This document shows positions 15,707-37,523 of a stretch of 64,000 nt of DNA, piece after piece. The notes under the pieces are model-generated. The model saw nothing but the letters and a program-made list of their open reading frames with translations. It made no database searches and had not been told where the DNA came from. The stretch is taken from NCBI RefSeq assembly GCF_053078305.1, contig NZ_CP166879.1. One strand, written 5' to 3'. The translations under genes and the position numbers were made by a program. Positions within the stretch are counted from its first letter, which is position 1. Each line of letters starts with the position of its first letter.

Positions 15707-15770
15707 GTAGCCACCCGAAGGCGCTCCTCTCAGGCCACTTGTGGAGCATTGGTGGTCGCCGGAGCGACAT
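15581..15770. repeat. tandem array of three ~63-bp structured units
   Basis: units begin at about 15581, 15643 and 15707; each opens with a 6-7 bp stem (TTGATC/GATCAA; TGGTC/GACCA) around the conserved loop ACCCGAAGGCG(C/T)TCCTCTCA. Confidence 0.8.
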
Positions 15771-15812
15771 ATAAGCCTGTATATTTTTAAATCACAAAAG
15801 ATGAATGTCAAG

Positions 15813-16136: not shown

Positions 16137-16168
16137 AATATTTACCCGTACGAAATCGCCATGAGTTA

Positions 16169-17071: not shown

Positions 17072-17120
17072 CAACTTCTCCTGCACATAATAATTTTTAC
17101 CTTAAACAGCTGTACGTTCG

Positions 17121-17171: not shown

Positions 17172-17783
17172 ATTTCTCCCTGACGACACGGTTAAACGTT
17201 GCGATCCTTCGGGTAGTGACTGCCTGTGCGCCAGGGTAGCGCAGATTGTTTAGGTATTGAGGGGTAACAAATCGGTGTTGCACACCGACTGCAGCATTTG
17301 CTGTACCTGTCTCCAGGTCGCCCCCGACACCACCTCTAATAAGTGGTATCGCCGATTCGGCATCTCACTACATAAAACTCCTTAAAAAAACAATTGATTC
17401 TGCAAAAAACCATTTATGGACGTTATTCACAAAATCGTCCGTAAATTTGCAGAAGAGGTTGAAAAAACACTCTCACGCCGGGTCACTTCTTCAAATGTTA
17501 AAAAACATCACGTGAAACGGCAGTTCGTGCGGGTTCGTTAAGCAGACGCGCGTGCGTCACTTTGTCATCGTGACACGCTGACGAAAGTGACGCCGCGCAG
17601 CTTCAGACGCCAGATACACGCGTAAGCGACCAAATTTCAAATGGTCTTATACAGCGCGCACAGTCGCAGGAAGTGCTGGCAAACAAATGAAAAGAATAAA
17701 AGAAGTCAATACCGCCATTACGCAGTAAGAACATTCCGGCATCACCGGATGGATAAGGATCACACAACCACTGCTGTGTATTG

Positions 17784-18037
17784 CCCGTAATAAAGGGCGC
17801 GGTTAAAAGAAACCTTCATCGTCATGACTGACGATATCTGCTCTCAAAGGTGGGCAGATTTACCACCACCAGAAACATCCTGGCTGCACATCCCCTTTCA
17901 GGTTACGGGGGTGTTGATCACCCGAAGGCGTTCCTCTCAGATCAACGGAACATTGGTGCCCACCGAAGCGGGATGTGGTCACCCGAAGGCGCTCCTCTCA
18001 GACCACTTATGGAGCATTGGTGGTCGCCGAAACGACA
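17784..18037. repeat. direct repeat copy 2 (~255 bp) with two tandem ~63-bp units (17913-18037)
   Basis: near-identical to 15451..15706. Confidence 0.85.
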
Positions 18038-20643: not shown

Positions 20644-21601
20644 GTCTTCATCCTCATCAGCAGCTCTTCAGTGGATAACATCCACAGTTACACCTGCATT
20701 TACGCGCAACAAAAACACCAGATGAAGATTTTATTCATTCAGCTCCGCTAAAAATTAATCTTGCTGTGGAATATCGGGAAAACAGGAAGTTACGTTAAAA
20801 GCCGAAGGAAAAACTCACAATCCCTTCTTCAATCAGCCTCTGAAAATCGGCTTTTCAGCATGTCTTCCCCCATTGTTCGTATACCCTGTTCGATGGATTA
20901 TTATTGATCCATATGATCGCTTCACGTAAACACGATTCTGGCTCCACACCATTCTGGACGCGATTGTTACCAAAAAAGACAACCATCACAAGACGTCACA
21001 GACGGTGCGTGCGCTTACTCCTGTATATCTGGCGCAACAGAATCTACCAGTGTAAACTCTCTATGCTTTTGCGCAGAAGCAGTGGGCCTGGGTTCGCTTA
21101 TGTCCTGCATCTACAAGCGAATGACTGACCAGAGACTCCCATATCTGGTCAGTCGCCCATTTTTATTTTCCCTATACACTCAGACTACAATAGCCGTAAC
21201 AAACAGCATACCCCCAGTCATAGTGGCCCCTTTATCTTCTTATGGCTTGTCTGTGGTACTGGAGATAGAGCAACTGTGGGAGTACTGTTATGGCCCCCGG
21301 TAAGAAAAACTCTTGCTTAATGTACAGCAGAACTGTTCCCAGAAAGAAGCCTGTGCATATTTTCATAGAAGGAGATCACCCATAACGGCGTTTTTCACGG
21401 TAATACACGCCAGGTAAAGAATGCTGGATTATCAATCAAAGCTCCGCACAGGAAGCGCTTATGCCGTAGAGCGCCCTCTGGAGAAAAGTGCTACTTCTTG
21501 TCGATTCAGACTAGTTCAGGAAATTATACGAAAATATTACCTGAATGAGCTAAATGTTATTTACCTTCCTTTCTGTTCATTGTAAATTTTTTCTTGCTAA
21601 C

Positions 21602-21620
21602 GCAAATCATTATCATTACG
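21602..21620. promoter_or_regulatory. Fur-box-like sequence upstream of TonB-dependent receptor
   Basis: GCAAATCATTATCATTACG contains AATCATTATC, matching half of the Fur consensus GATAATGATAATCATTATC; about 20 bp upstream of the ATG. Confidence 0.55.
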
Positions 21621-21640
21621 ATTTTAGAAAAGGGAAATTT

Positions 21641-23689
21641 ATGAAGAACAAATATATCATTGCTCCGGGCATTGCCGTGATATGTTCTGCAGTCATATCA
21701 TCAGGTTATGCCAGTTCTGATAAAAAAGAAGATACGCTTGTTGTTACTGCCTCCGGCTTCACTCAGCAACTCAGAAATGCACCGGCCAGTGTTTCAGTCA
21801 TTACTTCAGAGCAACTGCAAAAAAAACCGGTTTCAGACCTGGTCGATGCGGTAAAAGATGTTGAAGGGATTAGTATCACCGGTGGGAATGAAAAACCGGA
21901 TATCAGTATACGTGGGTTAAGTGGCGATTATACATTGATTCTGGTCGATGGACGACGTCAGAGTGGTCGGGAATCCAGACCAAACGGCAGCGGCGGTTTT
22001 GAAGCCGGATTTATCCCTCCTGTGGAAGCAATTGAGCGTATTGAAGTTATACGTGGCCCTATGTCTTCCCTGTATGGTTCCGATGCTATCGGAGGAGTTA
22101 TTAATATCATAACCAAACCTGTTAATAACCAGACATGGGATGGCGTACTTGGGCTTGGGGGAATTATTCAGGAACATGGGAAATTTGGTAACTCAACCAC
22201 GAATGACTTCTACCTGTCAGGCCCATTGGTTAAGGATAAACTTGGTCTTCAGTTATATGGAGGAATGAACTATCGCAAGGAAGATAGTATCTCTCAGGGA
22301 ACACCAGCAAAAGATAATAAGAATATAACGGCAACACTCCAGTTTACTCCGACTGAAAGCCAGAAGTTTGTTTTTGAATACGGAAAAAATAACCAGGAAC
22401 ATACATTAACACCTGGTGATTCTCTTGATGCCTGGACTATGCGGGGAAATCTTAAACAACCAAACAGTAAAAGAGAAACACATAACTCACGTAGTCACTG
22501 GGTAGCAGCATGGAATGCCCAGGGCGAAATACTGCATCCTGAAATTGCTGTTTATCAGGAGAAAGTTATTCGTGAGGTTAAATCTGGTAAAAAAGATAAA
22601 TATAATCATTGGGATCTTAATTACGAGTCAAGAAAACCGGAAATAACCAACACGATCATAGATGCAAAAGTGACGGCATTTCTGCCGGAAAATGTGCTGA
22701 CCATCGGAGGTCAATTTCAGCATGCAGAACTCCGTGATGACTCAGCCACAGGTAAAAAAACGACAGAAACACAGTCTGTTTCAGTTAAACAGAAAGCTGT
22801 TTTTATAGAAAATGAATATGCTGCAACGGATTCTCTCGCCCTGACTGGAGGGCTGCGCCTCGATAACCATGAAATCTATGGCAGTTACTGGAATCCAAGA
22901 TTGTATGCTGTTTATAACCTGACCGATAATCTCACTCTCAAAGGAGGGATCGCAAAAGCATTTCGGGCCCCTTCGATTCGTGAGGTCAGTCCTGGATTTG
23001 GAACACTGACGCAGGGTGGTGCCTCTATTATGTATGGAAACAGGGACCTGAAACCGGAGACCAGTGTAACCGAAGAGATCGGTATTATTTATAATAATGA
23101 CAGTGGTTTTTCAGCAAGCGCGACTCTGTTTAATACAGATTTTAAAAATAAGCTGACCAGTTACGATATAGGCACAAAAGATCCAGTCACTGGGCTAAAC
23201 ACTTTTATTTATGATAATGTGGGTGAGGCAAATATCAGAGGTGTGGAGCTTGCAACTCAGATTCCTGTGTATGATAAATGGCGTGTATCTGCAAACTATA
23301 CATTCACTGACTCCCGTCGAGAAAGCGATGACGAAAGTCTCAATGGCAAGTCGCTGAAAGGGGAACCTCTGGAAAGAACTCCCAGACATGCAGCCAATGC
23401 AAAACTGGAATGGGATTACACTCAGGATATTACATTTTATTCATCTCTGAATTATACAGGAAAACAAATCTGGGCAGCACAAAGAAATGGTGCCAAGGTT
23501 CCCCGTGTTCGTAATGGATTCACTTCTATGGATATTGGTATGAATTACCAGTTCCTGCCAGGCACGCTGATTAATTTTGCCGTACTTAACGTCACAGACA
23601 GAAAGAGCGAAGATATCGATACCATTGATGGTAACTGGCAGGTCGATGAAGGACGTCGTTACTGGGCTAATGTAAGAATATCCTTCTGA
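21641..23689 (+). CDS. ireA: TonB-dependent outer-membrane siderophore receptor (IreA-like)
   Basis: 682 aa from ATG 21641; signal peptide, TonB-box-like DTLVVTA, plug motif IEVIRGPMSSLYGSDAIGGVINIITK, terminal aromatic ...RISF; size and sequence match my recollection of IreA (Iha not excluded). Confidence 0.75.
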   Translation: MKNKYIIAPGIAVICSAVISSGYASSDKKEDTLVVTASGFTQQLRNAPASVSVITSEQLQKKPVSDLVDAVKDVEGISITGGNEKPDISIRGLSGDYTLILVDGRRQSGRESRPNGSGGFEAGFIPPVEAIERIEVIRGPMSSLYGSDAIGGVINIITKPVNNQTWDGVLGLGGIIQEHGKFGNSTTNDFYLSGPLVKDKLGLQLYGGMNYRKEDSISQGTPAKDNKNITATLQFTPTESQKFVFEYGKNNQEHTLTPGDSLDAWTMRGNLKQPNSKRETHNSRSHWVAAWNAQGEILHPEIAVYQEKVIREVKSGKKDKYNHWDLNYESRKPEITNTIIDAKVTAFLPENVLTIGGQFQHAELRDDSATGKKTTETQSVSVKQKAVFIENEYAATDSLALTGGLRLDNHEIYGSYWNPRLYAVYNLTDNLTLKGGIAKAFRAPSIREVSPGFGTLTQGGASIMYGNRDLKPETSVTEEIGIIYNNDSGFSASATLFNTDFKNKLTSYDIGTKDPVTGLNTFIYDNVGEANIRGVELATQIPVYDKWRVSANYTFTDSRRESDDESLNGKSLKGEPLERTPRHAANAKLEWDYTQDITFYSSLNYTGKQIWAAQRNGAKVPRVRNGFTSMDIGMNYQFLPGTLINFAVLNVTDRKSEDIDTIDGNWQVDEGRRYWANVRISF

Positions 23690-24362
23690 GAGAATATAGA
23701 TAACCTGAGGCCGTGCGCCTCAGGTACCAGTATAGTAATCAGTAACGTCAGCTTCCAGGTTGTAATGCTTTTAATTTTGATAAAAATAAACTTAATAAAT
23801 TACATTTGTTAAATATTGATAATTTTAATTTGGTTTTATTACTCCAGTTATACTCACACTCTATCTTTACACAATTCATCACCATTACACCTCCATAGCC
23901 TGTTGATTTAAAAGATTTAATTTCCTGTGAAACAATCAGGCCTGTATGAACCTGATTATACCACAGAATCTTTTAAGTTATTTAAATTTAACTCTCGGGC
24001 TTTTCTGTCAGTAAAATCAGAAAAATTGCAGGATTTCGTTTTTTTTGCTGCGAAGTGAAATGTATCTCATTTTTACTGCCTTCGCCAGTGCGTCAGGCAA
24101 TGGCAGGTAGTGTACCTGCATTCTGCTGTAACGCGTAATGTCGGGTAGTTTACTTAAACTTAATATGTTTTATGTTTGCATTATTATAAATCACTTTATT
24201 GCCTTTTGTCTGCTTTTTAATGGTTCCCGTTTTGTTCACTTCTGGCTTTATAAAAAATGGATGCTGAAGAAATGAAGGTAGTCCACCTTACATAATATTC
24301 ATGCATGATTTTTATGCTATTCCGACTGAGTGGAAGAAAATAAAGGAGAAAAGAGGGTATAT

Positions 24363-27300
24363 ATGAACCTCAGAAAAAAACATATCTGTATAGCCATATC
24401 ACTTGTTCTTAATCCGGCATCCATATCACAGGTCAGTGCTCAGGCAGATACAAATAAGTTAACTGTTGAAGTTGATGAAACCAGCCTTGGCCATGATGTC
24501 TATGGCGATGACTGGAAGAGCATTGAAATAGGTACAACGAAATTTACAGCAAAAGATGAATCAAAGGGAATTAATTTCGACCATAAATCACCGGTGGCTG
24601 AAGGACGTAACTCTATCGCGATTGGTACCAGTGCAGAGGCTGGAGGTGACATTAGCACGAAGGAAGGTTTGTACACAGGCGAGTCTATTGCGATAGGAGC
24701 GAAAACGAAAGCAACTAAAGAACAGTCAATTGCAATAGGTGGCGATACCAAAGCTACCGGATGGGGGGCTATTGTTATTGGTGGGGATGATTTAACTCCT
24801 TTGCATGGTAAGACTTATGGTCGGGAAAAAATAGAGAATGGCTATCTTGCATCGGAAGCGCAGGGGGATGGCAGTATTGCGCTGGGCAGCAGAACTTTTG
24901 CTAAAGGCGAATTGTCAGTATCGCTTGGTTCGGTGAGTTCTGCTGAGGGGATGGCCTCGAATGCAATTGGAGCCACGGCGGAAGCTAAAGGGGATATGGC
25001 GACTGCGGTTGGTTTTAATGCGCTGGCTAATGCCGGTAATGCTCTGGCCGTTGGTAGTCAGTCCTCTGCAAATAAAAACGATGCTCTTGCTGTTGGTTCA
25101 GAGGCAAATGCCGCTCAGAATGAAACGGTTGCCCTGGGGCATGGAGCAACCGTTACTGTCGCAAAGGGGAACGTGTCCATCGGCGCTGACTCCAGGGATA
25201 AGCAGGCACAAAAAGTAACAGAGGCTAAGGTCAGAACTAAAAGAGGCGCGGAAGTCACATATAGTGGCTTTGCCGGAAATAACGCAGCATCAGTAGTATC
25301 TGTTGGTGATGCGGGTAAAGAGCGTCAGATTGTTAACGTGGGGGCGGGTGCGATTTCTGACACAAGTACAGATGCCATTAACGGTAGTCAGTTATATGCG
25401 ATAGCGAAGACACTGAAAGATGACCTTGATGCCATTAATCCGACGTGGACGCTAAAGGATGATAAGGGAGGTTCTGCGACTATTAATGGTGGGAAGGATA
25501 ATAAGAATGGTAACACTTTAACTGTTAAAGGTGATGGAGATATTGCAGTTACTGTTAATGATAAAGGAATGACGATTGACGGAACAACGCTGAAAAATGA
25601 AATAAAAAATGATGCCATCAAAATTAAAGGTGGAGATGGTAAGACGCTGACGAAGAGTCTTGGTGACAATGTCGAAATCACTGGCAAAGGCCCAATAAAA
25701 ACCCAGGTGGCTGGAGATAAACTGGAGATTTCAGCAGAGACAGCTTCGTTGCCTGTAAATGGTGGTAACGGGAAGATTACAGTAAACAATGGTGATGGCG
25801 ATAAACTTGTTACTGCGAAAAACATTGCTGATGCCATAAACCAGTCTGGCTGGAAAATTAAAGCGGATAAAGATACCGGTGGTGTTATCGAGGGAAATGG
25901 TCAGGGAACAGAAACACTGATAAAACCCGGTGATATGGTTACGCTGAAAGCCGGTAAAAATCTCAGCGTGAAACAAAGTGGTGGTGATTTTACATTCTCT
26001 GTTATTGATACTCCGTCATTCAGCAGTGTTCAGCTGAATGGAAAAGGAAATAACGGAAGTGTAACGCTCTCATCCGAAGGTAATAAGCTGACATTGTCAG
26101 GCGGTAATGGTGCCGGACAAAATGGTGTTGTTATCAGTGGTGTGGCAAGTGGACTGGAAGGTAAGGAACTTTCGACGTTAACGAATACTGATAAAGAGAT
26201 GAAAAATGCCGCCAGTGTTGCAGACCTGAAAACGGCAATTGATGGTGTGTCCTCCAGTATGCAGGGTGCAGGTTTCGCACTGAAAGACTCTGATGATAAG
26301 GAAGTGAAACAGTCTCTTGGGCAGGCGATTAAAGTATCCGGGGACAGCAATATCACCACCACAGCCATCACCAATGGGGATAAGGGGTTAAAAATATCCC
26401 TGAATAATGACCTGAGCGTTGGGAGCAATAATACTCCCGGCAGCATCAAAGTTAACGGGGCTGATGGTAAGGAGGCTGTGAGTCTGAATGGTCAGGATGG
26501 CACGATTAAACTGACATCCTCGCCTGCTGCGGGTGGAAAGTCTGCGTCAGCAACCATTGCTGTTAATGCAGGCAAAGGTGGATTAACAGATGCTGCCGGT
26601 ACCACGAAGACACGTCTGACTTATACCCCGGATGGAAAATCACCGGCAGAAGAGCTGGCGACCATGAATGACGGTCTTTCTTTTGAGGGTGATGACGGAA
26701 AGGTTATTCATAAAAAACTGAATGAAAAACTGACCATCAAAGGTGGTGCAGAGAAGAATGCTGAAGTGACTGACGGCAATATCCGGGTTGATAATGATAA
26801 TGGCGGGCTTCTGGTGAGGATGACCAGAAACCTCCGTGATTTGGCCAGCGCGGTTTTTGGTACAGGTGGGCAGATAACAACAGTTAATGATAAAGGCATC
26901 ACAATCACAACACCTGCTGCGGGCGGTGGTCAGGGGAATACGGTTTCCCTTACCGGCTCCGGCCTGAATAACGGTGGAAATCAGATAACCAGTGTGGCCA
27001 GTGGTCTGAACGGCACTGCGCTTGCTGACGCCGGTGGAGATGTTCTGAATAATGCGGCCAATATCGGTGACCTGAAAAATGCTCTCCGTGACAGCAGTGC
27101 GGCACTGGTGAATACCGGCTTTGGTCTGCAGGCGGATGACGGAAGCAAGGTGAACACGTCTCTCGGGAAGCATATCACGGTTGGTGGTGACGGGCAGAAT
27201 ATCAGCACGACTGTTCAGAACGGGAGCCTGACGGTCAGACTCGCTGATAACATTCGCCTGGGAGATGACGGCAGTGTTTCTGTCGGCGGAACCCGGATGG

Positions 27301-28694
27301 ATAAAAACGGACTGACCATCAAGGATGGCCCGTCAGTGACTGTGAACGGTATTGATGCGGCTGGCCGGGTTATTTCCGGCGTGAAAGACGGGGTGAATGA
27401 CCAGGACGCCGTTAACGTTTCACAACTGAACCGTGAAATCAGTCAGGCAACGGCAGCAACGACCTGGGCACTGAAGACTGAATCCGGTGATGAGGCTGTT
27501 GCTGTTTCCTCCCAGACGGTTGAAGTCCGTCACGGACAGAATACCCGGGTTTCAGCCATCAGTAAGGATGATAAGGGAAATTACAGCTATGAGATTGATG
27601 TGACGGGGATTCCGGTGGAGTACACCGACAGCCAGGGGAACCCGCTTGTCAATATTGGTGGTCGTTTTTACACACAGACCGAAGATGCTGCGACCGGGAA
27701 ACTGACAATGACGCCGGCTGAGCCGGCCCGTGTCAGAATAAGCAGTGAGCAGCCTCTTGTTCTGACAAATGTGGCGGCCGGAAATGTGTCACCGGTATCC
27801 ACGGATGCGGTTAACGGGAGCCAGCTGGCATCTGCAGCCAGAATTGCTGGCGGTGATAATGTTGTCTGGAAAGACGGAAAAGCAGCGCTGGCTCCTGACA
27901 CCTTCAGTGAGCTGACAACTGCAGGTGGCGGTAAGACAACGGTGAATGGTGGTGTACATAAAACACCGGATAATGTGGCTGATGCAGTGAATATGCTGAA
28001 CCGTGAAGGCACGAAGTATTTTAAAGCTGCCTCTTCCGGTCAGGCAGCAAAAGCGGAAGGGCGTGACAGTATTGCTGTCGGACAGGGGGCCGTTTCCCGG
28101 GGACAAAACAGCATTGCCATGGGTAATGGTGCTGAAGTCACGCGTCAGGCTGCTGCCGGCTCTGTTGCAGTTGGCAGCCATGCCCGTGCTGGCCGCGCGA
28201 ATACCGGGACTTATGCCCTGAACGGTCAGGCTGTTGCGGGACGTACCGGAAGTGATACTGCGGTGGTTTCTTTTGGTCAGCCGGGACAGGAGCGTCAGCT
28301 GCAGTCAGTGGCACCGGGTGTGTTGTCTGCGAATTCAACGGATGCCGTCAATGGCAGTCAGTTGCATGCAACTAACCGTCAGGTTGCCGGAAATACACAG
28401 GCGATAAACACCCTCGGGAATAAATTCAGTCAGCTGAGCTACCGGGTGGAAGAGCTTAACCGGGATATCCGTGGTGTTGGTGCATCGGCTGCGGCCATGA
28501 GCGGGATACCTCAGGCCTATCTGCCGGGTAAAAGTCTGATGGGGCTGGGTGTCGGTGGATATGGTGGTGAAAGCGCCATTGCAATAGGGGTGTCCCGAAT
28601 CTCCGATAACGGTAAGATGATAATGAAACTGAATGCAGGTCAGAACACCCGGGGTAATTTCTCCGTCGGTGCCGGTGTGGGCTGGCAGTGGTAA
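24363..28694 (+). CDS. trimeric autotransporter adhesin (YadA-like anchor)
   Basis: 1443 aa from ATG 24363 (ORF opens at 24330); signal peptide; recurrent neck motifs DAVNGSQL / AINGSQLYA; YadA-type C-terminal anchor ending GVGWQW. Confidence 0.85.
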   Translation: MNLRKKHICIAISLVLNPASISQVSAQADTNKLTVEVDETSLGHDVYGDDWKSIEIGTTKFTAKDESKGINFDHKSPVAEGRNSIAIGTSAEAGGDISTKEGLYTGESIAIGAKTKATKEQSIAIGGDTKATGWGAIVIGGDDLTPLHGKTYGREKIENGYLASEAQGDGSIALGSRTFAKGELSVSLGSVSSAEGMASNAIGATAEAKGDMATAVGFNALANAGNALAVGSQSSANKNDALAVGSEANAAQNETVALGHGATVTVAKGNVSIGADSRDKQAQKVTEAKVRTKRGAEVTYSGFAGNNAASVVSVGDAGKERQIVNVGAGAISDTSTDAINGSQLYAIAKTLKDDLDAINPTWTLKDDKGGSATINGGKDNKNGNTLTVKGDGDIAVTVNDKGMTIDGTTLKNEIKNDAIKIKGGDGKTLTKSLGDNVEITGKGPIKTQVAGDKLEISAETASLPVNGGNGKITVNNGDGDKLVTAKNIADAINQSGWKIKADKDTGGVIEGNGQGTETLIKPGDMVTLKAGKNLSVKQSGGDFTFSVIDTPSFSSVQLNGKGNNGSVTLSSEGNKLTLSGGNGAGQNGVVISGVASGLEGKELSTLTNTDKEMKNAASVADLKTAIDGVSSSMQGAGFALKDSDDKEVKQSLGQAIKVSGDSNITTTAITNGDKGLKISLNNDLSVGSNNTPGSIKVNGADGKEAVSLNGQDGTIKLTSSPAAGGKSASATIAVNAGKGGLTDAAGTTKTRLTYTPDGKSPAEELATMNDGLSFEGDDGKVIHKKLNEKLTIKGGAEKNAEVTDGNIRVDNDNGGLLVRMTRNLRDLASAVFGTGGQITTVNDKGITITTPAAGGGQGNTVSLTGSGLNNGGNQITSVASGLNGTALADAGGDVLNNAANIGDLKNALRDSSAALVNTGFGLQADDGSKVNTSLGKHITVGGDGQNISTTVQNGSLTVRLADNIRLGDDGSVSVGGTRMDKNGLTIKDGPSVTVNGIDAAGRVISGVKDGVNDQDAVNVSQLNREISQATAATTWALKTESGDEAVAVSSQTVEVRHGQNTRVSAISKDDKGNYSYEIDVTGIPVEYTDSQGNPLVNIGGRFYTQTEDAATGKLTMTPAEPARVRISSEQPLVLTNVAAGNVSPVSTDAVNGSQLASAARIAGGDNVVWKDGKAALAPDTFSELTTAGGGKTTVNGGVHKTPDNVADAVNMLNREGTKYFKAASSGQAAKAEGRDSIAVGQGAVSRGQNSIAMGNGAEVTRQAAAGSVAVGSHARAGRANTGTYALNGQAVAGRTGSDTAVVSFGQPGQERQLQSVAPGVLSANSTDAVNGSQLHATNRQVAGNTQAINTLGNKFSQLSYRVEELNRDIRGVGASAAAMSGIPQAYLPGKSLMGLGVGGYGGESAIAIGVSRISDNGKMIMKLNAGQNTRGNFSVGAGVGWQW

Positions 28695-28718
28695 CAGGGA
28701 AAAGCAAGGAGAAATGTA

Positions 28719-29498
28719 ATGTTATTTAGTCGAATGATGATGACGGGTGTGCTGTCCCTGATGCTTGCAGGATGTGGAAATCTGAGTCATGTCACGGATG
28801 AAGGAACGACGGAAGAAGTGGTATGGCCTTCTCCGGAGAAGGTGATGTTTAATCATGACGGAACACAGAAAGGTTCGTGGCCACTGCCAGAAAAGTTACG
28901 TCAGATAAAGGCGGGTATGAATAAGGACCAGATTTATCAGCTGGCGGGGAGACCACACTTTGCTGAAGGGATGTCTGGTGTAAGGGAATGGGATTACCTG
29001 TTCAACTTTACCGGACCGGAGGGGGATTATACCTGCCAGTACAAGATACTGTTTGACCGGAACATGGATGCCCGCTCTTTCTACTGGAAGCCGGAAAACT
29101 GTCTGCCGGAGGCAGAGACAGCAGAATACAGGGAGTCAGTCCCCGGTGATATATTATTTGATTTTGATTCATGGACTCTGACAGAGAGGGGGCGTGATGC
29201 GCTTTCCCGTGTGGCAGAGAAGTTTCAGGCGGGTCATGTTGTCGGGGTGAAGATAGAAGGATTTACGGACCATCTTGGCGGGCAGGCGTATAACCGGCTC
29301 CTGTCAGAGAAACGGGCGGAATCAGTCAGGGGGTGGTTTATTGCCCGGGGATTCAGGGCTGAAAGGATACATGCAACGGGCCGTGGATATGATGCACCAG
29401 TGGTGTTCTGCCCGGATGTGGAGGGCGAAGCACTGAAGGAATGTCTGCGCCCCAACCGCAGGGTTGAAATAACCGGGGAAACATCAGTGACTGATTAA
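28719..29498 (+). CDS. OmpA-domain lipoprotein, TpgA-like partner of the adhesin
   Basis: 259 aa; lipobox LAGCG; C-terminal OmpA-like peptidoglycan-binding region (GFTDHLG ... NRRVEI); AGGAG RBS, 24 nt after the adhesin stop. Confidence 0.7.
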   Translation: MLFSRMMMTGVLSLMLAGCGNLSHVTDEGTTEEVVWPSPEKVMFNHDGTQKGSWPLPEKLRQIKAGMNKDQIYQLAGRPHFAEGMSGVREWDYLFNFTGPEGDYTCQYKILFDRNMDARSFYWKPENCLPEAETAEYRESVPGDILFDFDSWTLTERGRDALSRVAEKFQAGHVVGVKIEGFTDHLGGQAYNRLLSEKRAESVRGWFIARGFRAERIHATGRGYDAPVVFCPDVEGEALKECLRPNRRVEITGETSVTD

Positions 29499-29612
29499 CA
29501 ATAAAGTGCCCCGGGAACTAATGCCAGTCAGTTCAGCAACTGACTGGCTCTTTTTCGGGGCTGTGGGGTATTTCCAGGGAGCCTGTTTAGGAATCTGTGT
29601 AAATGCCTTTTC

Positions 29613-30134
29613 TCAGAAGTGACCGTCCAGGCGGTCACCGAACTCGATAATAAAGCGGCTCATTGCCATTCGCCGGTTTTGCCATTCTACAACCTGCTCC
29701 ATCACGGCATCGGTGACCTTTGATATCAGTGCCGGTGAAACATCTGCGTCATACAGCTCTTTGAACGCAGCAGCGATCTCACGGGTGGTCATCCCTTTGG
29801 CATACAACGAGAAGATCTGGTTATCCATCCCAGTAATACGGGTCTGATTTTTCTTTACCAGTTGTGGTTCGAAGGTACCGTCACGATCGCGCGGAGTACG
29901 CAGTTCCAGTGGACCGTCGCCTGTGATAACGGTCTTTGTGGAATAACCGTTGCGGGAGTTAGTTCCCGGTTTGGACTGATTTTTCTCATACCCAAGATGG
30001 TGTGTCATCTCTGCATTGAGAGCGGCTTCAACGCTGATCTTTTTCAGTAGACGGTCAAACTGGCTGAGGTCTTCAGGGGTTTTGAGGTTTTTGGCCAGTT
30101 CGTTAGCCAGAGCCTGTAACTGTTTTTCGTCCAT
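29613..30134 (-). pseudogene. IS256-family transposase, 5' fragment
   Basis: 173 aa (MDEKQLQALANELAKNLKT...EWQNR) matches the N-terminal third of IS256-family transposases, then diverges and stops. Confidence 0.7.
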
Positions 30135-31560
30135 AAATTAACCTTCATTTGATGCTTGATTGAACATATCAAAATCAGGCAATTACACAAATCTATGTAC
30201 AGGCTCTTTCCAAGGCCTCTCCTTTACCACTCTCGGGAAGCCCCTTTCCCTTCTTGTCGGTAATTTCACAAGTTGTCCCATACTTGCAAGATCGCGCATC
30301 AGCCCCGGTATACGTCCCGGTGAAGCGCCCTGCAATGTCATCACCATTCCGCATGATTCTGAGAAACTCAGTTGATTCGGCCAGTAACCTTTCAGATGTT
30401 CCGCCATTTTAATCATCTGACATCTTACCAGATTATAAGCCAGTAAGACACCCCACAGCTCTTGCTCCACAAGCTCCGGCTTTTTACAGCGTCAGCCTGC
30501 TCAGTTGCATCGTCTGTTTTATCTCCCTGTATCCCAGTTCAATTTCCCGGCGATGACTGTACAGATCCGCCATTTCTCCCCCGGGGAAGCGCATGGCGTC
30601 CGTCATCGACGTCAGCAGATGGCAGACTTCTCCTTTGCGCGTCACGGTCAGCAGGCGGGCTGTCACCTCATTTCCCAGTCCCGGCCACTTTTTTCGTGCC
30701 TGCGGGCTGGTTTTCAGCTTCACCAGATGATCGCCTTTACCCAGTTTTCTGATCTCTTCATATTGCGCTCCCTTTCTGAGAGGGATCATCCAGTGGCGGT
30801 GTTCTCCCACCAGGCTCCAGGCATTTAACAGTCCCAGTGAGTAATAACCTTTATCCATTAACGTCAGGGTGTTATCGCCGGTTTGTTCTATAAGTTGCTC
30901 AGCAAGCTCATTTTCGCTGTTCTTCATCGTGCCGAAGGCTCAGCCGTAAGCAGATGGCTGGTCAGTTCCATCTGGCAGACTATTTTGACCTGCGGGTAGA
31001 GCGCCGGGTTGCCGGCATGTATCTGGCGGGGGAAGGCTGCATCGTTCTCTGGTGTATCCGGTGTGCGCCAGAACATACCATCGATGGCCAGCAGGGTCAG
31101 GCCGCATCAGTGCGGATGCGGCGTGGCGTTATGCCAGAGCTGCGCTGTTTTCGTGAACACGCGGCGGACAGCCTCACTTCCCAGGTGCTGGCGGGCCTGA
31201 ATAACGGCACTGGGGGCAACGAAGGGGCGATTGCCGGCAGCATGATGTCCAGGCGATTCACAATCTGGTGAAGGGGCTCTTTACGCTCAAGCGCCATGCC
31301 AACAATACACCAGACCATCATTTCGAGGGGAAGACGGCGCTTGCGTAGCGTTACCGTACCTGATTCGGCAAGGCAACGAGAGATGAGTTCGGGGTCGAGG
31401 TAATCCCCCAGAGAAGCCAGTGGGTTACGCAGAGAATCGTAACGGGATACCAGATCAAGGGCCTGTCCAGTGTGCATAAAAAATCCGGAAACGAGTGAGC
31501 GTTTCCGGATTCTTACACAACCACTGGATCGGTCAACTGATCCTTAACCGATCGGCATTA
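30135..31560 (-). mobile_element. IS4 remnant (disrupted transposase; one terminal inverted repeat present)
   Basis: ORFs 31097..31477, 30484..30927 and 30183..30470 together match IS4 InsG in three frames; IS4-type terminal repeat ...CCGATCGGCATTA ends at 31560; the other end is not recognisable. Confidence 0.7.
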
Positions 31561-31590: not shown

Positions 31591-32166
31591 TTAGACGTTG
31601 ACGCCGTGCTGGGAAGCAAGCGCTGACAGGCCACCGGAAAAACCCTGACCGACAGCTTTAAACTTCCACTCAGCGCCATGGCGATACAGTTCACCGAAGA
31701 CCATTGCGGTTTCAGTTGAGGCGTCTTCAGACAGATCGAAACGGGCAATTTCCGCGCCGTTATCGTTGTTGTAAACGCGCATGAAGCTGTTGCTCACCAT
31801 GCCGAAATTTTGTTTACGCGCTTCTGCATCATAGATGGTAACGGCAAATACCAGTTTTTTGACGTCAACTGAGACTTTTGCCAGATCGATTTTAATTTGC
31901 TCATCGTCACCATCGCCTTCACCGGTACGGTTGTCACCCTGGTGCTCTACTGCGCCATCAGGGCTGGTTTTATTATTGAAGAAAATGAAATGGGCATCTG
32001 ACAGCACTTTACCGTCTTCACCTACTGCGAATACGGAAGCGTCCAGATCAAAAGCCTGACCGTCAGTTACACGGGCATCCCAGCCAAGACCAACCATAGC
32101 AACATTCATGGTCGGTGCTTCTTTGGTCAGAGATATGTTGCCGCCTTTTACGAGAGAAACTGCCAT
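31591..32166 (-). CDS. terE: tellurium resistance protein TerE
   Basis: 191 aa from [13 protein letters not shown]; TerD-family fold signature [13 protein letters not shown]. Confidence 0.9.
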
Positions 32167-32233
32167 TTTTAACTCCTGCAAACAGTTGAATGAGGGCTGA
32201 ATCAACAGCCCGGAATGAAAAGTTAGTTTTCGA

Positions 32234-32812
32234 TCAAGACGCGTTAATGCCGTACTGAGCACATACAGATGCCAGCCCCCCCGCATAACCCTGACCTACA
32301 GCACGGAATTTCCACTCACCATTGTGACGATACAGTTCACCGAACAGCATGGCGGTTTCAGTGGACGCATCTTCAGTCAGATCGTAGCGAGCAACTTCAG
32401 TCTGGTTATCGTCATTAACCAGGCGAATAAACGCCCCGGAAACCTGACCAAAGTTCTGACGGCGAGCCTGAGCATCATGGATCGTCACAACGAAGATGAT
32501 CCTGTCGATGTCAGACGGGACAGTATCAAGTTTAATTTTCAGCGATTCATCATCACCATCCCCCTCACCAGTACGGTTATCGCCGGTGTGCGTTACAGAA
32601 CCGTCGGATGACGTCAGGTTGTTATAGAAGATGAAATCTGAATCGCCACGCACTTTGCCGTTTGCGGTCAGCAGGAATGCTGAAGCATCCAAGTCAAAGT
32701 CCTGACCGTCAGTTGAACGTGCATCCCAGCCAAGACCCACCAGGACGTTTTTCATTGACGGAGCTGCTTTACTCAGGGAGACGTTCCCGCCTTTGGAAAG
32801 AGAAACACTCAT
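32234..32812 (-). CDS. terD: tellurium resistance protein TerD
   Basis: 192 aa from [13 protein letters not shown]; TerD-family. Confidence 0.9.
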
Positions 32813-32860
32813 AAAATAACCTCTTCGATTAGTAATTGCTCCGGTTAACACTTAAGGGGA

Positions 32861-33901
32861 TCAGTTCCCCTTTTCCTCAGATTCAGGTTTGCCGGGGAAA
32901 ATAACGCTTGCGAGAATGCCCAGCACCAGAACCCCCAGTACAACATACAGGCTGGTTGTCGCAGCGATGCTGTAACCATGATGCCAGATGTGATCGGTCG
33001 CGTTCAGGCCCAGTTTTACCGCAATGAAGAACAACAACACGATAACAGCCTTTTCCAGATGAATCAGGTACTGTTTCAGTGCTTCAAGGACAAAGTACAG
33101 AGTACGCAGCCCCAGGATAGCAAACATCATGGCACTATAGACGATAAGCGGTTCACGACTGACAGCAATGATTGCCGGTACCGAGTCAAACGCAAACATA
33201 ACATCCGAGAGTTCAACCACGGCCACACACAGGAACAGAGGGGTCGCATACAGCGCCGCCTTTTTACCACGGTCAATGGTTACATCACTGTTTTCTGGTT
33301 TCGCCAGTTCAGCATCCACTTCCTTCTGGTTAAGCAGGAAGGCATGCCCACGTAGCTTCGGCCAGACAGGGAAGAAACGTTTAACCATGCGGTAAGCCAG
33401 ATGCTGGGAGTAATCTTCAATTTCATCATCATCATCACCGCTTTTAAGCATCATGACCGCTGTCCAGGCAACGATGATAGCGAAGACGACTTCAACGTAC
33501 GGCCCCAGACTCAGCAGGCTCGTACCGATGGCGACAAAGATTCCCCTGAAGACGATCGCTCCAATGATCCCCCAGTAAAGCACACGGTGCCGATAACGAT
33601 CCGGAACAGCGAACCAGGAAAAGATGGCCATCATGACAAACAGGTTGTCGACCGACAGTACTTTCTCCAGCGCATACCCCGTGACAAACAAACTGGCAAC
33701 TTCAGCACCGTGGTGGATATAGAGGAAACCGGCAAATGCCATCGCAACAACAACCCAGAATACGGACCAGAGCGCCGCACTCTTCAGGGAGATTGGCTTG
33801 TCATCACGGTGCATAAACAGGTCAATAAAGATGGCTCCGACTGAAAGAGCAATAAAAACAATGACCGTTTCAGTCGGGAAGCCGATGTGTGTGGAAACCA
33901 T
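32861..33901 (-). CDS. terC: integral membrane protein TerC
   Basis: 346 aa, multi-pass membrane protein in conserved ter gene order. Confidence 0.9.
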   Translation of the reverse strand: MVSTHIGFPTETVIVFIALSVGAIFIDLFMHRDDKPISLKSAALWSVFWVVVAMAFAGFLYIHHGAEVASLFVTGYALEKVLSVDNLFVMMAIFSWFAVPDRYRHRVLYWGIIGAIVFRGIFVAIGTSLLSLGPYVEVVFAIIVAWTAVMMLKSGDDDDEIEDYSQHLAYRMVKRFFPVWPKLRGHAFLLNQKEVDAELAKPENSDVTIDRGKKAALYATPLFLCVAVVELSDVMFAFDSVPAIIAVSREPLIVYSAMMFAILGLRTLYFVLEALKQYLIHLEKAVIVLLFFIAVKLGLNATDHIWHHGYSIAATTSLYVVLGVLVLGILASVIFPGKPESEEKGN

Positions 33902-33919
33902 ATTTTACCCTTAGGGATG

Positions 33920-34375
33920 TCAGAGGCCAAATTCAGCCGGCTCGAAGCCCAACGCGATAGCGATCTCGCGGGAGGCCAGTTTCTCGTCCTGATCGAAGTT
34001 ACCGTCGCTTTTCGCAACAGCAATACCAACACGTAAGGCCAGTTGAGCGGCCTCAGGCTGATCTTTCAGCGCCAGGATGTATTTCATGGTCTCGCCCTTG
34101 CCGATTTCAACATCGAAATCGAAGCTTGAAACCAGTTTATTGAAGAACTCGATCACCTCATTGGTATCGAAGACCTTCAGCTCTTCTGAAGAGCGCAGAA
34201 AGCCCATCATTTTCTGCTTTTCTTCCGAACTCACGCCGTCACTCGATACGGCAATACGGGCACATACAGCAACGGTGCCCTGCATGAATTTTTTGTTTTT
34301 GAAACGACCAACCTGGCGGGTCAGTTCGTCACGACCAGAGTTAATGGCACCTTTAACTTTGTCGAAAAAGCTCAT
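33920..34375 (-). CDS. terB: tellurium resistance protein TerB
   Basis: 151 aa from MSFFDKVKGAINSG; conserved order. Confidence 0.85.
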   Translation of the reverse strand: MSFFDKVKGAINSGRDELTRQVGRFKNKKFMQGTVAVCARIAVSSDGVSSEEKQKMMGFLRSSEELKVFDTNEVIEFFNKLVSSFDFDVEIGKGETMKYILALKDQPEAAQLALRVGIAVAKSDGNFDQDEKLASREIAIALGFEPAEFGL

Positions 34376-34397
34376 ACCAGTTTCCTTTATTGCTGTG

Positions 34398-35555
34398 TTA
34401 TTTAGAACCGGCGCTCCAGCGAAATCCCCAGCCAAATGCCCGGTCCATTTCGTCCTGGCCTTTGAAGTACTGGTTGATACGCTCAACTTTAATCGCACCG
34501 TTTTCGTTTACGAGTCTGGCAATGGCGCACAATGTGCGACGGTTTTCACCTTCAGTCAGGCGGGTCTCAATGGGCGGTTGATCCGGCACATAAATGGTGA
34601 CCACTCCATCAGTCTTGTCCCAACTGGGAACACCTTCATAAATAAAGGCGTAAATCAGCACTTCGCGGATATGCTTCCATTCACGTCCATTGATATGCAG
34701 CCACTCGCCGTCTGATACATCACCCGTCCGGTCATCGCCCTTGAGCTGAACATAAGGTTCATCGCGATAATCACCGAATGCATTACCGAGCGCCTGAATG
34801 ACCGACTTATACCCGTCCTGAAGCTCAACAAAGGCTCCCAGATCCAGGTCGATGCCTTTGGAGCCGAACATGCCTGCAAAGCCGGATTTGCCGCTGCCCC
34901 GGTGCCAGTTCAGGTTGATCCTGATTTCACCGAAGTTATCCCGTTTGGTCAGACTGATTGCAGGCATCTCTTTTGTCAGAGATACTTTACTCAGGCTGAT
35001 TTTTGTCTCAGCTGGCAGAGGGGGTACAACCGGAGGAGTCGGGGCTGCGGGAGCCGGTTCGTCGGCAATATTTACGCCGAAATGCTCTGCCAGCGGTTTA
35101 AGTCCACCGTTGAACCCCTGCGCAACGAAGCGGAATTTCCAGCCATTATTACGACGGTAAAATTCACCCAGAATTAAGGCTGCTTCCTGACGGCCGCTCA
35201 GTTCGACACAGCCGCTCACCAGGCCGGTAGCCCCTTGCTCCACGTCGATGGAAAGATTACGAAGACCGGACACCGTCTGCCCACCGTCACAGGTCACGGT
35301 GAACGCAATTTTCTGGACATCAGGTTTCAGCCGGTTGAGCGCGACAGTAAAGGTTGAGTACTGACCTTCACTGACCAGGCTGACAGTACCATCATCGTTA
35401 CGTGGCTGACCATAAAACACCATGTCCGCATCCCCCTGCACCTTCCCGGCGGCATACAGGCGAAACGCTGAAGCATCCACCTGGACGCCCGAGGTTATCC
35501 GGACCCGCAACTCCTGGGCTGGAACGGGGGCATTGCCCCCCGGCATCAGGTTCAT
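34398..35555 (-). CDS. terA: tellurium resistance protein TerA
   Basis: 385 aa with TerD-like domains. Confidence 0.85.
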   Translation of the reverse strand: MNLMPGGNAPVPAQELRVRITSGVQVDASAFRLYAAGKVQGDADMVFYGQPRNDDGTVSLVSEGQYSTFTVALNRLKPDVQKIAFTVTCDGGQTVSGLRNLSIDVEQGATGLVSGCVELSGRQEAALILGEFYRRNNGWKFRFVAQGFNGGLKPLAEHFGVNIADEPAPAAPTPPVVPPLPAETKISLSKVSLTKEMPAISLTKRDNFGEIRINLNWHRGSGKSGFAGMFGSKGIDLDLGAFVELQDGYKSVIQALGNAFGDYRDEPYVQLKGDDRTGDVSDGEWLHINGREWKHIREVLIYAFIYEGVPSWDKTDGVVTIYVPDQPPIETRLTEGENRRTLCAIARLVNENGAIKVERINQYFKGQDEMDRAFGWGFRWSAGSK

Positions 35556-36136
35556 TAGCGAATAACCGCAGAAACGATATCGGAGTGCATATCGTCAATT
35601 GTGCGACCGCGACAGGCATGACCAAGGGCGGTAAAGTCCCAGTTGCCGTTATTACGGCGCAGCGAAGAAATAACGATCCCGGTATGTGAGCCCTGCTCAG
35701 TCAGCTTGTAGCAAGCCAGCTCTTTGCCGGTTTGATCGACCACACGACAGAACGCATTTTCGACGTCATTGAACGACTGCCCACGGAAGCTGTTAACCGT
35801 AAACGCCAGGTATTCAACGTTTGCAGGCAGACGGGAGAGGTTGACCTTAATCACTTCATCGTCGCCGTCACCCTCACCAGTCAGGTTATCACCGCTATGC
35901 ACAACAGCTTTGCAGGTGGATTCCAGTTTGCGGAACCAGATGGTGTCAATTGTTTTACCGGTGCTGTCCATTAATACACAGCCAGCATCGAGATCGATTG
36001 AGTCGTTACCTCCAAACAATCCTCCAAGAAAACCTTTTTTCTTAACCGGATCCCAACCGAGACCGAAATGAAGCTGGCTTAATGCAGGTGATTCTTTGCT
36101 GAGTGATACCGTCTGATTCTTAACTAATGAAACCAT
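35555..36136 (-). CDS. terZ: tellurium resistance protein TerZ
   Basis: 193 aa TerD-family (MVSLVKNQTVSLSK); stop overlaps terA start (TAATG). Confidence 0.85.
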   Translation of the reverse strand: MVSLVKNQTVSLSKESPALSQLHFGLGWDPVKKKGFLGGLFGGNDSIDLDAGCVLMDSTGKTIDTIWFRKLESTCKAVVHSGDNLTGEGDGDDEVIKVNLSRLPANVEYLAFTVNSFRGQSFNDVENAFCRVVDQTGKELACYKLTEQGSHTGIVISSLRRNNGNWDFTALGHACRGRTIDDMHSDIVSAVIR

Positions 36137-36455
36137 GTTTTATTCCTTAAAATGCTGATAACTGAGACAATCAAAAGTATATTTAGTAACTGGCGAAGAA
36201 AATCATATCATGATGAAGTTCTCTGACAAGGGAAATTTGGTAGCTTTCTGTAAAAACACAAAGAGAAATCCTTTTCATGATGTCCTTTCATCTAAATACC
36301 AATTAAATATCAACACATTAACAGGTAACACAAAAACACTGATACACTCCATAACCTCAGGTGTTATTAATCATATTATGATTGACATGTAGCATATACA
36401 CCCATAAACTCACTTCTCGACAATAAATTTTCTTGCCGTTCCGGATAATAAAAAA

Positions 36456-37514
36456 ATGAACAAAAAAATTTGGTTTATGGAAGGTTTGTCCTCTCAGAGA
36501 GATATTATTCAGGGGGTTAAATTATTTGCACAAAAAAATAATTTTGCCATTACCGTTTTTGCCTCCCACCGTAACGAAAGAAATGAAATCCTTTCCGTTG
36601 CCGATTATTCTTTGACTGAACCTGAAGATCCTCAAAAACGTCTTCAGTTTATTCAGGAAACCATTCAGACCTACGGCATCCACCATATTCATACTGGTCG
36701 TAACAACCAGTGGTTTGAAGAACACCGAACCGCCATTGAATCGACCGGTGCCACCCTTACTACCGGTGCAACGGGCATCGACTGGTTAACTCTGGCTGAC
36801 GAAAAAGTTACTTTTGCTCAGTTTATGGAGCAAAAGGGGCTCCCGGTCGTACCATCCTGGCGGGTGAATACGCTGGCAGAATTAAAGACACGCCTCGCGG
36901 CTCCGCCGTTCACTGACAGTCCGGTATGCGTGAAGCCGGTGACGGGTATCTACGGCATGGGATTCTGGCGCTTTGATGACAGTGCTTTGCCTATGGCCGT
37001 CTTTAATCACCCCGAACATCGTCTGGTCAGCCCGCAACTGTATATTGCTGCAGCGTCGGCTTCTGAGTCGTTTAAACCCCTTGTTTTGATGCCGTACCTG
37101 CCTGGCCCGGAATTTTCCGTCGATATCCTCGCGGATAAGGGCGAAATACTCGCAGCCGTGGGACGCCGTAAGGAAGGGGCTATCCAGTATCTGGTAAACC
37201 AAGGAAGCGCCTGGGAACTGGCGTGTGACTGCGCCCGGGTTATGAAGGCCGACGGGCTGGTGAATGTTCAGACGCGAAACGATGTGAATGGCAACCCGGT
37301 GCTGCTTGAAACCAACATGCGTCCGTCAGGCGGGGTGGGTTATACCCTTCACAGCGGGGTTAACCTTCCCGGGTTGTTTGCTGCTTTTAAGCTCGGTCTG
37401 ATGTCTGAAGATGCGGTGATCCAGAGCGCCAGAAATACCTTTTCTCCGGTTGCAGTGAGATCCATCACAGATGTCATCGTTTACCCGGAATCACTCTCTA
37501 ACCTTCTGAATTAA
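36456..37514 (+). CDS. ATP-grasp enzyme of the ter-associated biosynthetic module
   Basis: 352 aa; ATP-grasp-like architecture; first gene of an overlapping operon divergent from terZ. Confidence 0.7.
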   Translation: MNKKIWFMEGLSSQRDIIQGVKLFAQKNNFAITVFASHRNERNEILSVADYSLTEPEDPQKRLQFIQETIQTYGIHHIHTGRNNQWFEEHRTAIESTGATLTTGATGIDWLTLADEKVTFAQFMEQKGLPVVPSWRVNTLAELKTRLAAPPFTDSPVCVKPVTGIYGMGFWRFDDSALPMAVFNHPEHRLVSPQLYIAAASASESFKPLVLMPYLPGPEFSVDILADKGEILAAVGRRKEGAIQYLVNQGSAWELACDCARVMKADGLVNVQTRNDVNGNPVLLETNMRPSGGVGYTLHSGVNLPGLFAAFKLGLMSEDAVIQSARNTFSPVAVRSITDVIVYPESLSNLLN

Positions 37515-37523
37515 GGCGTGTTT

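Follow-up and report, generated by a model that had tools for sequence, protein, structure and literature searches.

A Probable Chromosomal, ireA-Linked Copy of the sab Operon of Shiga-Toxin Escherichia coli, Encoding a Trimeric Autotransporter Adhesin and a Putative TpgA-Family Cell Wall Clamp

Results

Two Adjacent Genes with the Anatomy of an Operon

The DNA studied here is a stretch of 64,000 nucleotides (nt) of Escherichia coli (NCBI RefSeq assembly GCF_053078305.1, contig NZ_CP166879.1), called the window below. All coordinates are positions within the window, and open reading frames (ORFs) were taken from a six-frame listing with translation. We focused on two plus-strand genes. The first (24363–28694; ATG at 24363, stop codon at 28692–28694) is an intact sab-family trimeric autotransporter adhesin (TAA) gene of 1443 amino acids (aa), and the second (28719–29498; 259 aa) encodes a putative lipoprotein of the TpgA family that resembles PlpD. 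The results make it probable that the pair is a chromosomal copy, linked to ireA, of the sab operon of Shiga-toxin E. coli (STEC) negative for LEE (locus of enterocyte effacement), and that the lipoprotein clamps the Sab membrane anchor to the cell wall.

The adhesin ATG is preceded by the ribosome-binding site AAGGAGA. A longer ORF beginning with GTG at 24330 is unnecessary, the ATG with its ribosome-binding site being the biologically sensible start. The two genes are separated by a spacer of exactly 24 nt (28695–28718, plus strand), which contains the Shine-Dalgarno sequence AAGGAG at 28706–28711, 7 nt ahead of the lipoprotein ATG at 28719. An earlier note on this DNA, made from the letters alone, had given the same adhesin start and the same 24-nt distance to a lipoprotein gene, and both were correct. 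No terminator-like site was found in the spacer by a consensus scan, so the adhesin and lipoprotein genes would be transcribed together. A strong intrinsic terminator (29523–29556, plus strand; scan match at 29523–29548) begins 25 nt past the stop of the second gene; its stem of 11 bp, with 6 G-C pairs, is followed by the T-run CTCTTTTTCGG. The pair is real and intact, and the spacer with a ribosome-binding site but no terminator, together with the terminator after the second gene, gives it the anatomy of a two-gene operon.

The operon promoter is expected in the AT-rich intergenic region upstream (23690–24362, plus strand, 673 bp). Promoter-like hexamers in it (e.g., 24160–24187) did not exceed the frequency in shuffled sequences (11 vs 8.0 ± 2.7). 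The sab operons of pO113 and pO104_H21 carry a PapB/FocB-family regulator gene directly upstream (L017 2720–3046 and L018 6922–7230), whereas tblastn with a PapB-like protein found no such gene upstream of the window operon. The upstream region of the window is common to three loci only (L001–L003) and is not shared with pO113-type loci.

The Predicted Adhesin Is a Head-Variant Allele of Sab

The first protein matched the Pfam families YadA_head, YadA_stalk and YadA_anchor (anchor at aa 1383–1443, E = 5.9e-19). Read from the translation, a signal peptide covers aa 1–28 (24363–24446, plus strand; …SQVSAQA↓DTN), and no extended signal peptide region (ESPR) was found in the adhesin with Pfam. The remaining domains follow on the plus strand. 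A hypervariable YadA-like head with the first neck (24540–25427, aa ~60–355) gave Protein Data Bank (PDB) matches to UspA1 and YadA-type heads over aa 78–352, and is merely 40–66% identical between alleles. The stalk (25428–27767, aa ~356–1135), delineated by motif scan and PDB matches, contains inserted modules, namely a Trp-ring-like motif of GW type (aa 496), a pair of ISneck-like modules (close to aa 591 and aa 1004) and, at aa 866–1045, a GIN/Trp-ring-like segment; fragments of BadA, VompD and AtaA were matched at aa 866–1044. A second, membrane-proximal YadA-like head with neck and coiled-coil stalk (27768–28508, aa ~1136–1382) is ~100% conserved among most alleles and matched 4usx, 3la9 and SadA fragments over aa 1127–1370. 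The motif scan showed three neck motifs in the passenger, and BLASTP self-comparison revealed no strong internal repeats in it.

The protein ends in a YadA-type membrane anchor (28509–28691, aa 1383–1443), which is most like that of Hia (E = 1e-18, compared with 5e-7 for the AtaA transmembrane domain, 9vnj_A, and 7e-6 for YadA). The anchor is plainly of type Vc and, as far as can be read from the sequence, the protein is a type Vc TAA; homology of the anchor suggests that it would form a homotrimer in the outer membrane. A homologue search with the anchor returned mostly fragments from mixed taxa (Chelonobacter, 50%; Comamonadaceae, ~45%; Haemophilus influenzae, 39%), which neither supports nor excludes a Pasteurellaceae origin of the Sab anchor.

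The window adhesin was aligned by BLASTP with Sab of pO113 (LH0147) over its full length, with 81% identity in 1449 columns. The pO113 gene (118908–123200) is labelled "autotransporter adhesin Sab" in the AMRFinder track of PLSDB with an "OmpA family protein" gene directly behind it; primers named LH0147 are those used for sab (PMC10025531). Sab of pO113 is reported to mediate epithelial adherence and biofilm formation (PMC12547504). Identity to this protein rises along the chain, from ~48% in aa 1–100 and ~40% in aa 201–300 to 88–90% in aa 700–900 and ~100% over the last ~550 aa (from aa ~895–1000 to the end), anchor included. Even the closest genome, strain JNEC-KY171 (hereafter KY171), has a diverged head, with 41% identity in aa 201–300. 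Such a gradient is typical of TAAs, in which the tip recombines and the base stays constant. Based on these alignments, the predicted adhesin is an allele of Sab and is best called a head-variant allele. An assembly chimera as the source of the C-terminal near-identity to pO113 sab is unlikely, because a conserved block comprising the C-terminal passenger, the anchor and the lipoprotein N-domain (window 27400–29105) recurs in 86 complete genomes.

The Second Protein Combines a TpgA-N-Type and an OmpA-Type Domain

The second protein begins with a lipoprotein signal peptide (28719–28775, plus strand), which reads MLFSRMMMTGVLSLMLAG↓C and carries the lipobox LAG↓C19. The same lipobox is present in all E. 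coli alleles and in PlpD. In the Lol pathway of E. coli the residue at position +2 determines sorting, and since this residue is Gly here, the lipoprotein is predicted to be sorted to the outer membrane. Among 147 family representatives, which were found by an exhaustive representative search with TpgA-N, 60 matched a permissive lipobox pattern, indicating that lipidation would not be unusual in the family. A word-indexed search with the TpgA-N fragment gave short BamE-only Acinetobacter proteins only.

Two Pfam domains were found, BamE at aa 54–115 (E = 3e-14) and OmpA at aa 146–228 (E = 1e-16). The BamE-like, TpgA-N-type domain (28776–29102, plus strand, aa 20–128) is predicted to consist of two helices followed by three strands. 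When aa 20–135 were compared with solved chains by phmmer, the TpgA-N crystal chain 9vnj_B was matched with E = 1e-11 and the best BamE with 0.02, the solved BamE chains ranging over 0.02–0.4. An AlphaFold2 model of this domain (mean predicted local distance difference test, pLDDT, 91.7) also had 9vnj_B as its top PDB match in Foldseek, with a template modelling (TM) score of 0.84 and a root mean square deviation (rmsd) of 2.3 Å, compared with a TM score of ~0.65 for BamE. A BamE orthologue was rejected on these marginal E values and on architecture, the lipoprotein having two domains in 259 aa and BamE a single domain of ~110 aa.

The OmpA_C-type domain (29139–29483, plus strand, aa ~141–255) contains the motif N192-x-x-L195-S196-x-x-R199-A200. 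It matched the C-domains of Salmonella and E. coli OmpA with E = 3e-18, Cys-Cys pair included, and superposed on Salmonella OmpA-C (4rha) with a TM score of 0.89 and an rmsd of 1.5 Å (Foldseek). N192, L195, S196 and R199 are invariant in an alignment of 80 sequences, in which D184, A200, C106/C128 and C231/C242 are at least 90% conserved. C106 and C128 lie in the N-domain, and C231/C242 is a cysteine pair as seen in enterobacterial OmpA. D184 and R199 presumably correspond to the diaminopimelate-binding pair described for OmpA-like domains. The full-length AlphaFold2 model, built from 80 homologues (pLDDT 91), again showed two helices and three strands and then the OmpA_C domain, the latter filling the top 50 PDB matches. 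The best NCBIfam family is the TpgA equivalog model NF047726, which covers aa 4–252 on profile positions 5–267 of 268. Sequence and models together indicate that the putative lipoprotein is a member of the TpgA family and that its N-domain is distinct from true BamE.

Charged Contact Residues Are Kept on Both Partners

TpgA-N and the AtaA transmembrane domain form an A3B3 complex, and TpgA also binds peptidoglycan (PMC12523085). The contacts described for AtaA-TpgA are K64-D3601, D65-K3576 and the hydrophobic tip L80-F81; K64A and F81A weaken AtaA pull-down, abolition by F81A not being reported, and K64, L80/F81 and D3601 are conserved in taa-tpgA cassettes (PMC12523085). These residues were mapped on the window proteins by counting along HMMER alignments to the 9vnj chains. 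On the lipoprotein, K64 corresponds to K69, D65 to D70, L80 to M85 and F81 to S86; on the anchor, K3576 corresponds to K1390 (in the motif PGK) and D3601 to D1415 (in ISDNGK). By this mapping, the two partners retain both of the published salt-bridge pairs.

The earlier note had described the second protein as a lipoprotein with a C-terminal OmpA-like domain of peptidoglycan-binding type and the locus as an arrangement like Ata-TpgA, the first gene being a TAA. The passenger and anchor annotation (Pfam and PDB matches) confirmed the TAA; the lipobox, the Pfam OmpA match and the OmpA fold confirmed the lipoprotein; and the arrangement held in view of the match to 9vnj_B in sequence and fold, the OmpA_C superposition, TpgA as the best NCBIfam family and the retention of both charge pairs. 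That reading was right but lacked four points: the identity of the adhesin as Sab, the published report of TpgA-like genes in Escherichia, the loss of the aromatic tip and the existence of stand-alone PlpD kin.

The BamE fold of the N-domain raises another explanation, in which the lipoprotein is a transient assembly helper for insertion and trimerization of the Sab barrel, with a role like that of SadB, and no permanent clamp is formed. It agrees with the description of TpgA as facilitating secretion and surface display of the AtaA passenger, and with the absence from the window allele of the tip residue needed for stable pull-down. However, the N-domain is far closer to TpgA-N than to BamE, the surfaces by which BamE binds BamA and BamD are different in TpgA-N, and the AtaA complex is stable without crosslinking (PMC12523085). 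A conserved domain of peptidoglycan-binding type would also be hard to explain in a purely transient chaperone, and we regard this explanation as unlikely. A SadB-like helper was also rejected as a family assignment: no chain named SadB was among the PDB matches with E ≤ 0.01, in a library whose content of SadB was not confirmed.

The Pair Is Linked and Mobile in E. coli

Of 5426 complete E. coli genomes, 86 carry the conserved block, which occupies 72 plasmid and 22 chromosomal places; some strains hold two or three copies. At least 80% of the block is covered in 88 records, and every listed record with full coverage has both genes annotated under the match. The adjacency of adhesin and lipoprotein is therefore not due to chance, and a chance ORF pair was rejected. 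The 65 PLSDB plasmids with the block are all from E. coli; 62 are conjugative and most are ehx plasmids. Full-length matches to the head variant of the window occurred in 26 genomes only.

Every E. coli lipoprotein allele whose neighbourhood was read (62–99% identity) lies ~20–40 nt after a TAA gene, and the divergent alleles (76%, 63% and 62%) stand directly behind TAAs with unrelated passengers. The relatives P0256 (45% identity) and P0265 (41%) also follow TAA genes in spot checks. In one published survey, 644 homologues of TpgA were located beside TAAs in Gamma- and Betaproteobacteria, and some of these consisted of BamE alone. In Acinetobacter, gain and loss of ata and tpgA are reported to go together. 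In the TpgA-like cluster I, which includes Escherichia, 91% of the genes are downstream of a taa gene (PMC12523085).

Across three allele comparisons, the identities of anchor and lipoprotein N-domain were 100/100, 99/99 and 86/81%. In the last two of these, the passenger fell to 62% and then 49%, and the OmpA part to 54% and then 48%. Moreover, the plasmid homology block stops at the boundary between N-domain and OmpA part. This co-conservation of anchor and N-domain fits two interacting parts kept as one module.

Evidence Against a Specific Clamp

Several observations weigh against a lipoprotein that specifically clamps Sab. The lipoprotein scored 119 bits with NF047726, where the equivalog cut-off is 350, and its full-length identity to Acinetobacter-type TpgA is ~30%; on the score it is a family relative and not an equivalog of Acinetobacter TpgA. 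The shared conservation of anchor and N-domain could simply reflect their adjacency in the DNA. Because PlpD/Plp4 kin stand alone, the lipoprotein subfamily does not need a cis-encoded TAA. Finally, the tip pair is Met85-Ser86, so that a hydrophobic residue is kept and the aromatic one is lost; this position is F/Y/W in 125 of the 147 representatives and Ser in none, while the Lys is kept in 136.

The stand-alone relatives and Ser86 would both agree with a general tether of PlpD type between outer membrane and peptidoglycan, which makes no specific contact with Sab and is neighbouring cargo. The closest kin outside E. coli are indeed PlpD/Plp4 proteins encoded in housekeeping contexts (Mannheimia, Actinobacillus, Avibacterium and Pelistega), and no TAA was found within 7–9 kb of their loci (L004–L009, L015–L016 and L020). 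On the other hand, all E. coli allele lineages examined, including those as low as 62% identity and behind unrelated passengers, show a strict link to a TAA, which extends to the distant relatives P0256 and P0265. The 24-nt gap without a terminator and the retention of salt-bridge residues on both partners also speak against a general tether, and we judge it improbable.

Ser86 itself (codon TCT, 28974–28976) deserves consideration, as its effect on binding is the main caveat on the clamp mechanism. The pO113 allele has Met-Phe at the tip of an N-domain otherwise identical to that of the window. The Ser86 allele is fixed across the chromosomal and plasmid copies of L001–L003, and its cluster at 90% identity has 572 member sequences, indicating a fixed trait of the lineage rather than an error. 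The lipoprotein is equally intact in a further E. coli lineage, whose tip is Ile-Ala. Compensation of the lost aromatic tip by lipidation was not supported among the representatives, since the aromatic residue was lost in 12 of 57 lipobox-bearing proteins and 10 of 90 others (Fisher p = 0.15).

If the change from F to S abolished binding, the partner would be functionally degraded in the Ser86 sab lineage, and the second gene would be a decaying passenger. In the model system F81A does reduce complex formation (PMC12523085), and a serine at the tip is unique when set against the 147 representatives. However, reduction is what was reported for F81A, not abolition (PMC12523085). The ORF is intact, and apart from this residue its N-domain matches the Phe allele of pO113 at 100% identity. 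The fixation of the Ser allele in chromosome and plasmid copies, the size of its cluster and the intact Ile-Ala lineage also speak against decay, which we consider highly improbable.

Genomic Setting of the Operon

Upstream of the operon, and outside it, lies ireA (21554–23689, plus strand), a TonB-dependent siderophore receptor gene with Pfam domains Plug and TonB_dep_Rec. Its product scored 1514 bits with NCBIfam NF010011 (cut-off 1197), and ireA is annotated in homologous loci; since alignment to the family model starts at residue 30, the true start is likely near 21641. Downstream, an IS256-family transposase remnant (29613–30927, minus strand) is split into ORFs of 173, 95 and 147 aa; its family was read from the annotation of the homologous locus. 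It has a 686-bp internal deletion relative to KY171, where the element is intact, and an IS4 pseudogene lies beyond it. The earlier note had placed the pair between a siderophore receptor and insertion sequence (IS) debris and taken the adhesin for cargo of the island. Both statements agree with these flanks and with the homologous loci, where chromosomal copies of the cassette neighbour ireA and copies on conjugative ehx plasmids are flanked by IS elements.

The window represents a genomic island found in Shiga-toxin strains of E. coli. KY171 is the closest complete genome, with flanks 99.1–99.8% identical and the order subAB, integrase, ireA, TAA, OmpA-family gene, IS256 and IS4 copies, ter operon. 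G+C content is patchy across the window. A tRNA search found no tRNA gene anywhere in the window, so the integration site of the island lies outside it.

Other parts of the island were annotated as well. A low-G+C type III restriction-modification system (3069–8020) consists of Mod (N6_N4_Mtase plus an EcoP15I C-terminal domain) and then Res (ResIII helicase plus an endonuclease domain); it is not at the equivalent position in KY171, where a nan (sialic acid) cluster lies instead. Remnants of an integrative conjugative element (9647–17086 and 55243–56748) encode DUF1281, ArdC-like anti-restriction/metallopeptidase, integrase (Integrase_1) and TraG_N proteins. A segment of ~255 bp (17783–18037) has a second copy in KY171 near the island integrase (L003 16043–16299, 98%) and could represent a short repeat or else a scar of recombination. 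The tellurite-resistance (ter) cluster (31591–42487), with ATP-grasp, phosphoribosyltransferase, HAD and StiP genes, is 99.8% identical to that of KY171 and shares ~95% identity with ter islands elsewhere in E. coli, O104:H4 among them. A low-G+C (0.32–0.37) minus-strand cluster with strong negative GC skew (44143–50784) contains a CoA transferase and a GntP-family permease (Pfam); its ORF of 401 aa (44143–45348) matches the KY171 fabV gene in size and position, and a MaoC dehydratase gene is annotated nearby in KY171. This cluster looks like a separately acquired metabolic module.

In the E. coli draft L012, a sab-family cassette lies ~5 kb from a small TAA gene of 425 aa on the opposite strand, adjoined by IS66 and group II intron fragments. 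The small 425-aa TAA is also called in the E. coli drafts L010 and L011. TAAs thus cluster on these mobile regions.

Discussion

The window operon probably represents the sab operon of LEE-negative STEC in a chromosomal, ireA-linked form, in which a TpgA-family lipoprotein serves as the clamp of the adhesin. By homology, lipidation, complex formation, peptidoglycan binding and an effect on surface display would all be expected. The operon would be transcribed from a promoter within the 673 bp upstream. Sab would be exported, trimerize and be inserted by the β-barrel assembly machinery (BAM), three chains with four strands each giving a 12-strand barrel in the outer membrane and a fibre with the hypervariable head at its tip. 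The lipoprotein, translated from its own ribosome-binding site, would be acylated at Cys19 and sorted by Lol to the inner leaflet of the outer membrane. The N-domain may then dock on the Sab barrel at its periplasmic loops or face, forming by analogy a 3:3 complex, through the salt bridges K69-D1415 and D70-K1390, while the OmpA_C domain would hold peptidoglycan non-covalently. With the anchor clamped to the cell wall in this way, more adhesin could be displayed and could resist pull-out under shear, as has been proposed for TpgA.

Sab, the TpgA family and the linkage of its genes to TAAs, Escherichia included, have already been published. The specific pairing of Sab with a TpgA-like partner is undescribed, yet it would be expected by a specialist, and neither an experiment on this pair nor a paper connecting Sab or STEC with TpgA was found in the searchable literature. 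At least one review places Sab among the classical autotransporters of type Va (PMC3796261). Its anchor is of type Vc, and with a probable dedicated partner of TpgA type beside it, functional and vaccine work on Sab should clone both genes.

The window allele also bears on the detection of sab. The standard sab PCR primers LH0147-f/r match pO113 perfectly and lie in the hypervariable head (window 24363–25400 vs L018 6429–6591). They do not match the window allele, whose nearest sites differ from the primers at 5 and 4 positions, that of the reverse primer falling outside the adhesin gene, and they do not match the pO104_H21 allele either. Head-variant sab alleles, some of them chromosomal and ireA-linked, would escape the standard PCR, so PCR surveys of LEE-negative STEC may under-count sab. 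Moreover, the E. coli cassettes form a natural allelic series, in which a constant block of anchor and N-domain is combined with differing OmpA domains and the tip residue is Phe, Ser or Ala; the series could serve in a tractable host to test which TAA-TpgA contacts matter.

Compared with AtaA-TpgA of Acinetobacter sp. Tol 5 and Ata-TpgA of A. baumannii (structure 9vnj), the window pair has the same order, taa and then partner in one operon, and the partner has the same composition of a BamE-like N-domain and an OmpA_C domain. It differs in that a lipobox is present in the E. coli proteins, where Acinetobacter-type TpgA has an ordinary signal peptide. The N-terminal extension also differs, reading CGNLSxVTDEGT…FNHDG in the E. 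coli lipoprotein and FPE…SYLKQ…RYEY in Acinetobacter TpgA, and the adhesin is shorter (1443 aa vs 3630 aa in AtaA). The sab operon of pO113 is much closer. Its Sab shares the architecture and has a similar length (1431 aa vs 1443 aa), with a head (aa 1–350) ~50% identical to that of the window, and directly behind it stands a lipoprotein with 76% identity. The two N-domains are identical except for residue 86, where the window has Ser in place of Phe; the OmpA part has diverged and the window linker is 12 aa shorter. The pO113 operon is plasmid-borne next to ehx, whereas the window copy is chromosomal next to ireA.

Outside E. coli, the closest relatives of the lipoprotein are PlpD of Mannheimia haemolytica and its PlpD/Plp4 kin in Pasteurellaceae and Pelistega (~48% identity, 98–100% coverage). 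They share the lipobox, the mature N-terminus CGNLSxV(T/S)xEGT and both domains with the window lipoprotein, and PlpD keeps K-D-L-(F/Y) at the contact positions. In contrast to the TAA-linked window gene on a mobile island, plpD stands alone in housekeeping neighbourhoods, after recJ, sohB or dsbA, in every locus read. In a neighbour-joining tree (computed without support values), the PlpD clade was sister to the E. coli clade and nested among TAA-linked relatives. Hia of H. influenzae (2gr7, 3emo) gave the best solved match of the Sab anchor, and the motifs PGK and ISDNGK are common to both. Its passenger differs from that of Sab, and no downstream tpgA-like gene has been reported for hia. 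Hia is also the only TAA outside the cassettes that keeps D3601 (PMC12523085). Since the PlpD sister clade keeps the contact residues, the Sab anchor is Hia-like and Hia keeps D3601, we tentatively raise the possibility that PlpD/Plp4 proteins act in trans as TpgA equivalents which clamp Hia-type anchors to peptidoglycan, and that E. coli captured one of them in cis behind a Hia-like anchor. This idea is speculative and would sooner prove wrong than right. No assigned role was found for PlpD/Plp4, which are conserved stand-alone genes of Pasteurellaceae, and the likeness suggests a testable function for them.

In the same tree, the BamE-plus-OmpA protein P0241 was sister to the PlpD clade; its gene directly follows that of a Peptidase_S8 protein of 1081 aa and not a TAA gene (L023 940–5169). 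TpgA-like partners may serve other surface proteins too.

Two further systems share single features with the window pair. SadA-SadB of Salmonella and E. coli likewise pairs an enterobacterial TAA with its own lipoprotein helper from the same operon, SadB being described as a trimeric inner-membrane lipoprotein. BamE (SmpA/OmlA) has the same fold of two helices and three strands as the N-domain of the window lipoprotein and is also lipidated, but it is without the OmpA_C domain.

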